This document shows positions 18,623 to 50,595 of a DNA stretch of 64,000 nucleotides, piece by piece (the first letter of the stretch is position 1; the number at the start of each line of letters is the position of its first letter). Location of the stretch: positions 6,742 through 70,741 of the forward strand of contig JAGTRI010000003.1 of NCBI GenBank assembly GCA_018397065.1, read 5' to 3'. Position numbers and translations under genes: made by a program. Origin of the DNA: Candidatus Bathyarchaeota archaeon (GTDB lineage: Archaea > Thermoproteota > Bathyarchaeia > Bathyarchaeales > DTEX01). The notes below the pieces were generated by a model. It saw only the letters and a program-made list of their open reading frames with translations. It did not search any database and was not told where the DNA came from.

Positions 18623-18714
18623 TGGTGCTCCGGCCGGGATTTGAACCCGGGTTTCCGGCTTTCTTTCTTGTTGTCGAAAGGCCGGAATACTTGACCGGAC
18701 TATACTACCGGAGC
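18623..18714 (-). tRNA. tRNA-Glu(UUC) with 14-nt canonical intron and encoded CCA
   Basis: Reverse complement GCTCCGGTAGTATAGTCCGGTCAAGTATTCCGGCCTTTCG[ACAACAAGAAAGAA]AGCCGGAAACCCGGGTTCAAATCCCGGCCGGAGCACCA. Anticodon loop CTTTCGA after splicing. Confidence 0.85.
18661..18674 (-). other. tRNA-Glu intron (position 37/38, 14 nt)
   Basis: CTTT (positions 32-35) pairs with intron AAAG. 3-nt bulges CG|A and AA|A flank this 4-bp helix (minimal bulge-helix-loop). Confidence 0.7.
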
Positions 18715-50017: not shown

Positions 50018-50140
50018 GGGTTGCCAGCTTTCCTGGCTTCGCACAGCCGAAGACTGCACTACCACCAGGAACGGAGCGTGGTTTAACTTCCGAGTTCGGA
50101 ATGGGTTCGGGTGGGTCCCACGCCCTATGGCCGGCAACCC
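50018..50140 (-). rRNA. 5S ribosomal RNA (stand-alone)
   Basis: Reverse complement GGGTTGCCGGCCATAGGGCGTGGGACCCACCCGAACCCATTCCGAACTCGGAAGTTAAACCACGC...GCTGGCAACCC. Conserved CCGAAC..GGAAGTTAA core and terminal helix I GGGTTGCC/GGCAACCC. Confidence 0.85.
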
Positions 50141-50170: not shown

Positions 50171-50205
50171 CTTTCGTTTTGAATTGCCAATTTACGAACG
50201 TAACG

Positions 50206-50213
50206 CATATATG
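50206..50213 (+). promoter_or_regulatory. Putative TATA-like box for tRNA-Trp
   Basis: CATATATG centred about 32 nt upstream of the tRNA 5' end. Position-based guess only. Confidence 0.3.
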
Positions 50214-50269
50214 TTGATTCTCAAAAAAATGTTGGGTTGTGGGGCTGTAGTCTAGTACGGTATGACGAC

Positions 50270-50296
50270 AGTTAGAAAACAAGACCTAACCGTTAA
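50270..50296 (+). other. tRNA-Trp intron 1 (27 nt, between positions 28/29)
   Basis: 4-bp helix GACG/CGTT flanked by bulges AC|A and AA|G, plus 5-bp intron helix GTTAG/CTAAC. Confidence 0.65.
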
Positions 50297-50305
50297 GGGC
50301 TCCAG

Positions 50306-50364
50306 AAAGCAACACGGGTTTGCGGACCAGAACATGGGATGAAGAAGTTCTGGAGCACGGAGAA
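50306..50364 (+). other. tRNA-Trp intron 2 (59 nt, canonical 37/38)
   Basis: 4-bp helix CTCC (positions 32-35) / GGAG (50359-50362), with bulges AG|A and AA|A. The junction is ambiguous by one A. Confidence 0.65.
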
Positions 50365-50370
50365 ACCCGT

Positions 50371-50399
50371 AGGAGCAAGCAAAACTTGACTCCGGGGAA
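50371..50399 (+). other. tRNA-Trp intron 3 (29 nt, between positions 43/44)
   Basis: Helix (A)CCC/GGG(G) with bulges GT|A and AA|A, plus intron helix GGAG/CTCC. The junction is ambiguous within the repeated AGG. Confidence 0.6.
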
Positions 50400-50595
50400 A
50401 GGCCGCCGGTTCAAATCCGACCAGCCCCACCATATTCTTTATGCGTTCTTGTAATACTGGAATTTCCACAGAATAATTTCGTTTTTACATTTTTGTGGTT
50501 TGAAGGTTACATTCATCGTTTTATTACGTTGAAATCCTTTGCATTCCACGTAATGTTTTTTAGGTTGAACCTAAGTTTTTCTTTGGGCGAAAAAC

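Follow-up and report, generated by a model that had tools for sequence, protein, structure and literature searches.

The tRNA-Trp Locus and Its Spliced Product

The DNA considered in the present work (hereafter, the window) is a stretch of 64,000 nt from a Candidatus Bathyarchaeota archaeon (assembly GCA_018397065.1, contig JAGTRI010000003.1, positions 6,742 to 70,741 of the forward strand). It harbors a locus of 192 nt that very probably represents a functional tRNA-Trp(CCA) gene of a Bathyarchaeia archaeon from a hot spring, in which four exons are separated by three introns (Table 1). The occurrence of a three-intron tRNA-Trp gene had been reported in an initial annotation of this DNA and is confirmed here; moreover, the coordinates, the lengths of the three segments to be removed (27, 59, and 29 nt), and the sequences that it had listed agree with the sequence as read.

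Table 1. Features of the tRNA-Trp locus and of its surroundings (positions refer to the window; numbers such as 28/29 are tRNA positions).
Feature	Position	Strand	Description
tRNA-Trp(CCA) gene, 192 nt	50241-50432	+	acceptor stem, D arm, T arm, encoded CCA
Exon 1, 29 nt	50241-50269	+	positions 1-28: acceptor 5' strand, D arm, G26, A27, C28
Intron 1, 27 nt	50270-50296	+	site 28/29; central helix GACG(23-26):CGTT, 4 bp including one G·U
Exon 2, 9 nt	50297-50305	+	positions 29-37, GGGCTCCAG
Anticodon CCA (C34 C35 A36)	50302-50304	+	in exon 2
Intron 2, 59 nt	50306-50364	+	canonical site 37/38; central helix CTCC(32-35):GGAG, 4 bp
Putative antisense element 1	50314-50322	+	ACGGGTTTG; at least 90% conserved at every position
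Putative D' box	50323-50326	+	CGGA; C..GA invariant; CTGA, CCGA, or CAGA in relatives
Hairpin between D' and C'	50327-50337	+	CCA-GAACA-TGG; covarying, 2-4 bp across relatives
Putative C' box	50339-50345	+	ATGAAGA; ATGA.GA invariant; ATGACGA or ATGATGA in relatives
Spacer with putative antisense element 2	50346-50357	+	AGTTCTGGAGCA; C'-D spacing exactly 12 nt
D box candidate	50358-50361	+	CGGA; overlaps the GGAG strand of the intron 2 central helix
Exon 3, 6 nt	50365-50370	+	positions 38-43, ACCCGT
Intron 3, 29 nt	50371-50399	+	site 43/44; central helix (A)CCC(38-41):GGG(G)
Exon 4, 33 nt	50400-50432	+	positions 44-76: variable loop AGGCC, T arm, acceptor 3' strand, A73, CCA
BRE-like AACGTAACGC and TATA element ATATAT	50197-50212 (TATA 50207-50212)	+	putative promoter, read from the sequence
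5S rRNA gene	50019-50138	-	Rfam 78.8 bits; divergent from the tRNA-Trp gene, 102 bp apart

The four exons, once joined, give the 77-mer GGGGCTGTAGTCTAGTACGGTATGACGACGGGCTCCAGACCCGTAGGCCGCCGGTTCAAATCCGACCAGCCCCACCA, which ARAGORN, run on the spliced sequence, folds into a cloverleaf and calls tRNA-Trp(cca), thus accepting the 77-nt product that had been proposed. Its acceptor stem is GGGGCTG/CAGCCCC and its anticodon stem ACGGG/CCCGT, closing the loop CTCCAGA. All the universal tRNA bases are found in the 77-mer, i.e., U8, A14, G18, G19, and A21 (the five lying in exon 1), U33, R37, Y48, G53, T54, T55, C56, A58, and C61. It also carries A73 and the G1-C72 pair, which are the identity elements recognized by tryptophanyl-tRNA synthetase in archaeal and eukaryotic tRNA-Trp. 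The initial annotation had correctly described the acceptor stem, the anticodon stem and its loop, the variable loop, and the CCA end, whereas it had left out two non-standard pairs, that is C50·A64 in the T stem GCCGG/CCGAC (window positions 50406 and 50420) and U13·U22 in the D stem.

Orthologous Loci and Distribution of the Introns

The search for orthologues, carried out on one genome per species with the 3'-exon pattern GGTTCAAATCCGNCCAGCCCCA, returned 119 stretches; 41 of them are tRNA-Trp genes, all in records assigned to Bathyarchaeia/Bathyarchaeota, so that the comparison set consists of 42 loci including that of the window. Spliced in silico, every one of the 42 yields a tRNA-Trp(cca) of 77-78 nt according to ARAGORN, with the anticodon CCA in all cases.

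Four intron sites occur across these loci, namely 17/17a (in the D loop), 28/29, 37/38, and 43/44, and they are combined in eight ways. The most frequent set is 37/38 with 43/44 (25 of the 42 loci), followed by all four sites together (five loci), by the D loop, 28/29, and 37/38 (four loci), and by the set of the window, i.e., 28/29, 37/38, and 43/44, which is found in three loci (the window, L104, and L105). Two loci combine the D loop, 37/38, and 43/44, while 37/38 only, the D loop with 37/38, and 28/29 with 37/38 are represented by one locus each.

Where an intron is missing, it is missing exactly at the predicted junction. Intron 1 is absent from 29 of the 42 loci, and in 25 orthologues the exons read GACGAC↓GGGCTCCAG (the arrow marking the junction) with nothing between. 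Similarly, the seven loci lacking intron 3 read ACCCGT↓AGG(C/T)CG, and in one of them (L086) the join is the window's own, ACCCGT↓AGGCCGCCGG. The placement of introns 1 and 3 at 28/29 and 43/44 in the initial annotation is therefore borne out by orthologues that are joined exactly there.

Averaged over all pairs, the mature tRNAs are 93.5% identical, a value that is somewhat inflated because the orthologues were collected through an exact match of 22 nt in the 3' exon; outside the search pattern (first 50 mature nt), it is 92%. The average falls to 76% in intron 2 and to 64-66% in the remaining introns. As for closer relatives, an identical copy of the adjoining GatE protein is encoded by contig JAWCKB010000003.1 of GCA_038852565.1, by GCA_038846965.1, and by two Logan assemblies. 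The strain copies (L001-L004) are too alike to inform: in the tRNA region, a single-nucleotide polymorphism is observed, at position 50284 in the loop of intron 1 (A in the window and L002; G in L001, L003, and L004).

Bulge-Helix-Bulge Motifs at the Splice Junctions

The Haloferax drawings of PMC2584109 (Additional file 3) served as the reference for the geometry of the bulge-helix-bulge (BHB) motif. In these, the four intron bases just ahead of the last two are paired with four bases of the exon, a 3-nt bulge lies 3' of each helix strand, and the junction falls after the second base of the bulge (PMC2584109). The helices and bulges drawn in the initial annotation for the three introns are correct against this geometry, the central helix of intron 3 consisting of 3 bp plus an A·G. 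Intron 1 has bulges AC↓A and AA↓G and an inner helix GTTAG:CTAAC, with no outer helix; intron 2 has bulges AG↓A and AA↓A, uses the anticodon stem as its outer helix, and has no inner helix; intron 3 has bulges GT↓A and AA↓A and an inner helix GGAG:CTCC extended by CAAG:CTTG, again with no outer helix. The strict hBHBh' form, with 2 bp or more in each flanking helix, is shown by none of the three, the outer helix being of 0-1 bp in introns 1 and 3; all three introns are relaxed BHB forms. Relaxed motifs are usual for non-canonical introns (PMC4033280, PMC3239211). The junction of intron 2 shares with the pre-tRNA-Trp of Haloferax volcanii the central helix (C32:g, U33:a, C34:g, C35:g) and the 5' bulge (A36 G37 a), whereas the 3' bulge is a u A38 in the latter and a a A38 in the window, one intron base being different (PMC2584109, Additional file 3).

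Folding and comparison do not carry the same weight here. The minimum-energy structures of the isolated segments are the predicted shapes. The z-scores of the single junctions against shuffled sequences range from -1.2 to -1.7 and are not significant; those for the junctions and the whole precursor together (from -1.2 to -2.5) are weak and were not used as evidence. In the junction-anchored alignment, 95.6% of the cells of intron 1 are paired versus 2.5-49% in slid controls, and the inner helix is paired in 92% over 10 distinct sequences; four of its five pairs change on both sides (e.g., UA to CG), with a covariation score reached by none of 500 shuffles. For intron 3, the figures are 87.8% of cells versus 9.5-61% in slid controls and 89% for the inner helix; four of five inner pairs change on both sides, and none of 500 shuffles reached the score. 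A chance origin of the predicted introns is thus excluded by the comparison and not by folding, because the intron-less orthologues fit the predicted junctions exactly and the helix covariation beats all 500 shuffles. The comparison with orthologous loci suggested in the initial annotation hence agrees with the introns it had predicted.

Intron 2 as a Putative Box C/D-like Guide

Intron 2, read in the initial annotation as an intron only, appears to be more than a passive one. It is present in all 42 genome loci, and on metagenome contigs the intron-less join SRYKAVGGGCTCCAGACCCGTAG gave no match, versus at least 120 for an intron-bearing control pattern; such retention agrees with a function. 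The multialignment of 39 distinct intron 2 sequences revealed that the 5' part and the region ahead of the 3' end vary freely, and that between them lies an ordered series of conserved elements (Table 1).

The first of these, antisense element 1, includes ACGGGTTT, which pairs with the last two intron bases and A38-U43; this 8-bp duplex is paired in 98% of cells over the 39 distinct sequences, and C39 lies opposite the fifth base upstream of D'. In antisense element 2, TTCTGGAGC, conservation does not drop below 90% in any of the nine columns, six of which are invariant; this element pairs with G31-G37 and the first two intron bases in a 9-bp duplex that is 99% paired, and the fifth base upstream of the D box candidate faces C34. 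Taken together, the two guide-target duplexes are paired in 98.8% of cells. The hairpin between D' and C' is paired in 81% of cells versus 23-55% in slid controls, with a covariation score of 0.281 versus 0.138 in shuffles, reached by one shuffle out of 500; it would form the canonical stem of a kink-turn.

This arrangement can be compared with that of the tRNA-Trp intron of haloarchaea, which is laid out as C box, antisense-39, CUGA, hairpin, UGACGA, CCCUCUGGAGUU, CCGA, and terminal stem, with positions 39 and 34 at the fifth pair (PMC2584109, Additional file 4) and with GGACGA or UGACGA in the C box region (PMC2584109). The Haloferax intron guides ribose methylation at 34 and 39, and such introns have been described for Euryarchaeota only (PMC7994747, PMC11408192, PMC3326292). 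The two introns share the host gene, the intron site, the order of the elements (antisense-39, D', hairpin, C', 12-nt antisense-34, D), and the fifth-base register on 39 and 34, antisense element 2 being in the same register as CCCUCUGGAGUU-CCGA; both have a core UCUGGAG, followed by two bases and by a D box of the NCGA/NGGA type, and in both, guide duplexes and splicing motif are in competition. They differ in length (59 nt versus approximately 103 nt), in that the intron of the window has neither C box nor terminal stem and its D box overlaps the central helix, in position 39 (C instead of U), and in the presence of two more introns flanking the target region. A further short intron comes from the TACK (Thaumarchaeota, Aigarchaeota, Crenarchaeota, and Korarchaeota) archaeon Sulfolobus solfataricus, whose 65-nt tRNA-Trp intron persists as a stable circle and likewise contains two stretches complementary to 34 and 39; no consensus C and D boxes were reported for it (PMC3326292), whereas here C' and D' are clear and invariant in the 39 sequences.

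On these grounds, we consider it rather probable that intron 2 acts like the euryarchaeal guide intron, directing methylation of C39 and C34. The intron would associate with L7Ae, Nop5, and fibrillarin and the 2'-O-methylation of the two bases would take place either in cis, while the intron is still part of the precursor, or in trans, once it has been cut out. Since intron 2 has no C box, this function is one that we infer, and the intron would be best described as a box C/D-like module and not filed as a box C/D RNA. At 37 °C, the splicing-competent fold has an energy of -21.6 kcal/mol and the two guide duplexes have -22.1 and -21.6 kcal/mol; given such near-equal values, the precursor could switch between the splicing fold and the guide duplexes. 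The two guide duplexes cross, and forcing both at once gave meaningless positive energies, which were not used.

A number of observations weigh against a guide function. Over the initial 8-20 nt of intron 2, none of the 39 sequences has anything resembling a C box (RUGAUGA), nor is one conserved across the 5' splice site, and a terminal stem is missing as well. The D box is degenerate, besides overlapping the central helix: GTGA, TTGA, TGGA, and ACGA are found in relatives, and the large two-intron clade has GTCT, GTCA, or GTAA, which are not of the GA type. L062 and L086 have a degraded antisense element 1. Lastly, no Rfam C/D family matched at threshold, the best E-values being 0.3-9 with 8-14 bits versus gathering scores of 37-50; these weak matches cluster on intron 2, on the tRNA strand (2/8, 6/9, and 6/10 of the weak hits).

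Most of these observations would be expected if intron 2 were just an intron, whose conserved stretches pair with its own splice junctions and shape or time folding and splicing, with no methylation guided by it. The Sulfolobus intron offers a precedent for complementarities without consensus boxes and with no function shown (PMC3326292), and the Haloferax intron is dispensable for growth (PMC7714728, PMC11408192). We regard this explanation as possible and yet doubtful, in that it accounts neither for the invariant ATGA.GA and C..GA around a covarying hairpin nor for the exact 12-nt spacer; it also leaves unexplained the fifth-base register on 34 and 39, both of which are methylated in haloarchaeal tRNA-Trp.

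Alternative Readings of the Locus

The junction sequences are compatible with more than one register. Owing to the bases repeated at the junctions (A for intron 2 and AGG for intron 3), an identical tRNA results whether intron 2 lies at 37/38 or at 38/39, and whichever position between 43/44 and 46/47 is taken for intron 3. It is nevertheless unlikely that the mature tRNA is formed as predicted with one or two cuts in another register (38/39, or 44/45 to 46/47): only at 37/38 and 43/44 does each cut follow the second base of a 3-nt bulge, with a 4-bp helix lying between the two bulges, and at 37/38 the central helix and the 5' bulge agree with the Haloferax drawing. These two sites, which are also those of the initial annotation, were chosen among the equivalent registers because they are the only ones that fit the helix-bulge geometry.

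The reading of the locus as a functional gene has to be weighed against its behavior with standard tools, all tRNA scans of this genome being within the window. The unspliced locus received no call from ARAGORN in the window scan, and it gave no match to the Rfam tRNA model either at the gathering score (29 bits for RF00005) or in a permissive scan of the locus; the window scans (ARAGORN, and Rfam at the gathering score) recover other tRNAs and the 5S rRNA. That genes of this kind are easily missed, as the initial annotation had remarked, is thus exemplified by the locus itself, which both default ARAGORN and the Rfam tRNA model skip. Further points on the same side are the C50·A64 mismatch, the central helix of intron 3, which in the window has 3 bp plus A·G (a 4-bp helix, GGGT, is found in about half of the distinct orthologues, i.e., 10/21 and 14/25 in two tallies), the non-significant folding scores of the single junctions, and the selection of orthologues through their 3' exon.

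The Rfam tRNA model does recognize orthologues with fewer introns, assigning 54.5 bits to L062, 42 bits to L035, and 37 bits to L057 (one- and two-intron loci), all of which are over its threshold. In L057, the model accommodates the 43/44 intron as an insertion placed precisely after CCCGUA and before GGUC. Through these relatives, the covariance model lends indirect support to the 77-mer of the window.

If the locus were a decaying tRNA pseudogene with insertions and the true tRNA-Trp were encoded elsewhere, the silence of the standard tools and the pairs C50·A64 and U13·U22 would find an easy explanation, and the search for other tRNA-Trp genes covered the window only. We hold this to be very improbable. 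The exons are 92-94% identical over 41 species while the introns diverge, the intron helices undergo compensatory changes, the promoter is conserved, and the sole difference among the five strain-level copies is a base in an intron loop. Moreover, the C50·A64 mismatch is common to seven species (that of the window, L022, L048, L053, L086, L104, and L105), the pair 50-64 being C-G, U·G, or U-A in the other relatives.

Two other tRNA-like identities were proposed by the programs and rejected. In the permissive scan, the Rfam model of the transfer-messenger RNA (tmRNA) aligns to exactly 50241-50432 with 17.6 bits (E = 2.8e-5), far under the gathering score of 47, and the alignment uses the acceptor stem, the T arm, and CCA only. 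ARAGORN in single-intron mode returned from the same locus a tRNA-Pro(agg) with a 93-nt intron, with a poor anticodon stem and an extra arm of 22 nt; ARAGORN, one of the programs that the initial annotation had named for a check, thus calls the spliced product a tRNA-Trp and miscalls the raw locus as a tRNA-Pro. Even so, the probability that the locus encodes a tmRNA-like molecule or a one-intron tRNA-Pro(AGG) is negligible, the two being contradicted by the orthologue series in which intron 1 or 3 is missing.

Known Multi-Intron Genes and Relatives with Four and Five Predicted Introns

Archaeal tRNA genes with multiple introns are known in Thermoproteales (Pyrobaculum, Thermofilum, and Caldivirga) and in Thaumarchaeota, with a stated maximum of three introns per gene (PMC4033280, PMC8450103). 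The statement of the initial annotation that multi-intron tRNAs occur in some Thermoproteota is in keeping with these descriptions from Thermoproteales. Like those genes, the one in the window has several short introns at canonical and non-canonical sites with BHB or relaxed motifs, its close introns have mutually exclusive motifs, and default finders miss it. Unlike them, it belongs to Bathyarchaeia, its canonical intron carries a conserved module that would be functional, and four sites recur over dozens of species with clean presence or absence. We found no paper on tRNA introns in Bathyarchaeia. The gene of the window belongs to this multi-intron kind, in a lineage other than those described, and intron 2 would represent a reduced variant of the euryarchaeal guide intron. 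Up to three BHB-bounded introns per gene are also harbored by nuclear tRNA genes of Cyanidioschyzon merolae, which differ in being those of a eukaryotic nucleus, with other sites and no guide module (PMC3728597).

Some relatives are predicted to exceed three introns. Orthologous genes of 223-235 nt with four predicted BHB-type introns, at 17/17a, 28/29, 37/38, and 43/44, occur in five genomes (L048, L052, L053, L085, and L087) and in at least five metagenome loci (L129, L141, L178, L190, and L215). Furthermore, a GC-richer clade of 14 metagenome loci of 220-234 nt (L132, L145, L162, L170, L179, L189, L197, L211, L220, L224, L230, L231, L233, and L238) has five predicted introns, at 10/11, 28/29, 37/38, 45/46, and 59/60, the last in the T loop. 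Each of these introns has a central helix of 3-4 bp with 3-nt bulges, an inner helix is present in all except that at 37/38, and the spliced products of all 14 loci are 77-nt tRNA-Trp(cca) according to ARAGORN. No paper was found reporting more than three introns in one archaeal tRNA gene, the coverage of the literature being incomplete.

In the five-intron clade (e.g., L179), the exon flank CCGTAG↓ and the intron strand GCGG (helix CCGT:GCGG) are common to the introns at 10/11 and 45/46, which suggests that one of them may have arisen by copying of the other into a similar target.

The 5' side of these genes deserves a separate description. In the five-intron clade, a copy of the 5' acceptor strand, GGGGCCG, lies 24-27 nt upstream of the tRNA 5' end within a conserved CTGGGGCCGCCCTGTC block; in L145, it reads GGGGTCG, matching that locus's own acceptor, and five other loci have one mismatch. 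A TATA-like element is found approximately 30 nt further upstream. The copy could belong to a leader structure or indicate one more intron; all registers were examined for a sixth intron within the acceptor stem, and no convincing BHB was obtained. In two metagenome loci (L127 and L156), the spliced alignment suggests a further intron site in the 5' acceptor strand, after about position 3-4.

The same scan also retrieved other Bathyarchaeia tRNA genes (GGGGCTGTCGGCTAG..., with Pro-type anticodons) of 115-170 nt, which seemingly contain one to three inserts (L006, L012, L016, L017, L028, L037, L047, L078, L100, L106, L115, L117, and others), three being apparent in L047 and L016. Since these genes also appear to hold inserts, multi-intron tRNAs seem to be common in Bathyarchaeia.

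In principle, the gene of the window can be placed in a broader scenario, to which we assign about even chances. According to this, it would represent one stage of a lineage-wide series of tRNA-Trp introns, with seven or more sites and with four- and five-intron relatives, in which the intron that is never lost is a minimal guide without C box, directed to 34 and 39 in the euryarchaeal register. Because this register on 34 and 39 is the same as that of the euryarchaeal tRNA-Trp intron, the guide intron would predate the split between Euryarchaeota and TACK.

Proposed Processing of the Precursor

The gene would be transcribed from a promoter composed of a B recognition element (BRE) and a TATA element, approximately 30 nt upstream, into a precursor of approximately 200 nt. 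The putative promoter block sits 29-34 nt upstream of the mature 5' end, and a block (A)ACG(T/C)A..(C/T)ATATAT is found upstream of most orthologues, roughly at -29 to -55; for these reasons of position and conservation, we infer that it serves the tRNA-Trp gene.

The archaeal tRNA splicing endonuclease would then remove the three introns, cutting after the second base of the 3-nt bulges that flank the 4-bp helix, and exon ligation would yield the 77-nt tRNA with its encoded CCA. Since introns 1 and 3 have no outer helix, i.e., a relaxed motif, the host is predicted to possess an endonuclease of broad specificity, like other lineages whose tRNA genes have non-canonical introns, where relaxed motifs need such an enzyme (PMC4033280, PMC3239211). 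Probing the window by tblastn with an approximate EndA query did not retrieve any match, a result that is uninformative.

As for the order of the cuts, C39-C41 are used both by the intron 3 motif and by the anticodon stem that intron 2 needs; due to this sharing, the precursor would have to refold between cuts. In the three-intron tRNA-Ile(UAU) of C. merolae, the non-canonical introns are removed before the 37/38 intron (PMC3728597). By analogy, this order is a possible model for the removal of the introns from the window gene.

Other RNA Genes in the Window

The divergent 5S rRNA neighbor (Table 1) is kept in L062, L080, and L104. A simple search for additional multi-intron tRNAs concealed in the window retrieved two AT-rich chance matches only. 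In addition, a tRNA-Glu(TTC) gene lies at 18626-18714 on the minus strand; it has a canonical intron of 14 nt with the central helix CTTT:AAAG, scores 54.5 bits with Rfam, and is absent from the default output of ARAGORN.

Implications

The data reported here bear, in the first place, on the annotation of this lineage. Because neither ARAGORN nor the Rfam tRNA model detects the locus, and the intron mode of ARAGORN miscalls it as a tRNA-Pro, metagenome-assembled genomes (MAGs) of Bathyarchaeia may seem to be devoid of tRNA-Trp, with skewed inferences on completeness and codon usage; the tRNA-Pro(agg) miscall is itself an annotation hazard for such MAGs. Moreover, the relaxed motifs at 28/29 and 43/44 predict the existence of a broad-specificity splicing endonuclease in Bathyarchaeia.

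The orthologue series, with its clean gain and loss at fixed sites, and the shared CCGTAG↓ flank provide material to test how tRNA introns spread, and the relatives with four and five predicted introns stretch the known limit of fragmentation for a single tRNA gene. Finally, if the reading of intron 2 as a guide is true, the methylation of positions 34 and 39 of tRNA-Trp by way of its intron would not be just a euryarchaeal trait, and the intron would show how small a working C/D-type guide may be.

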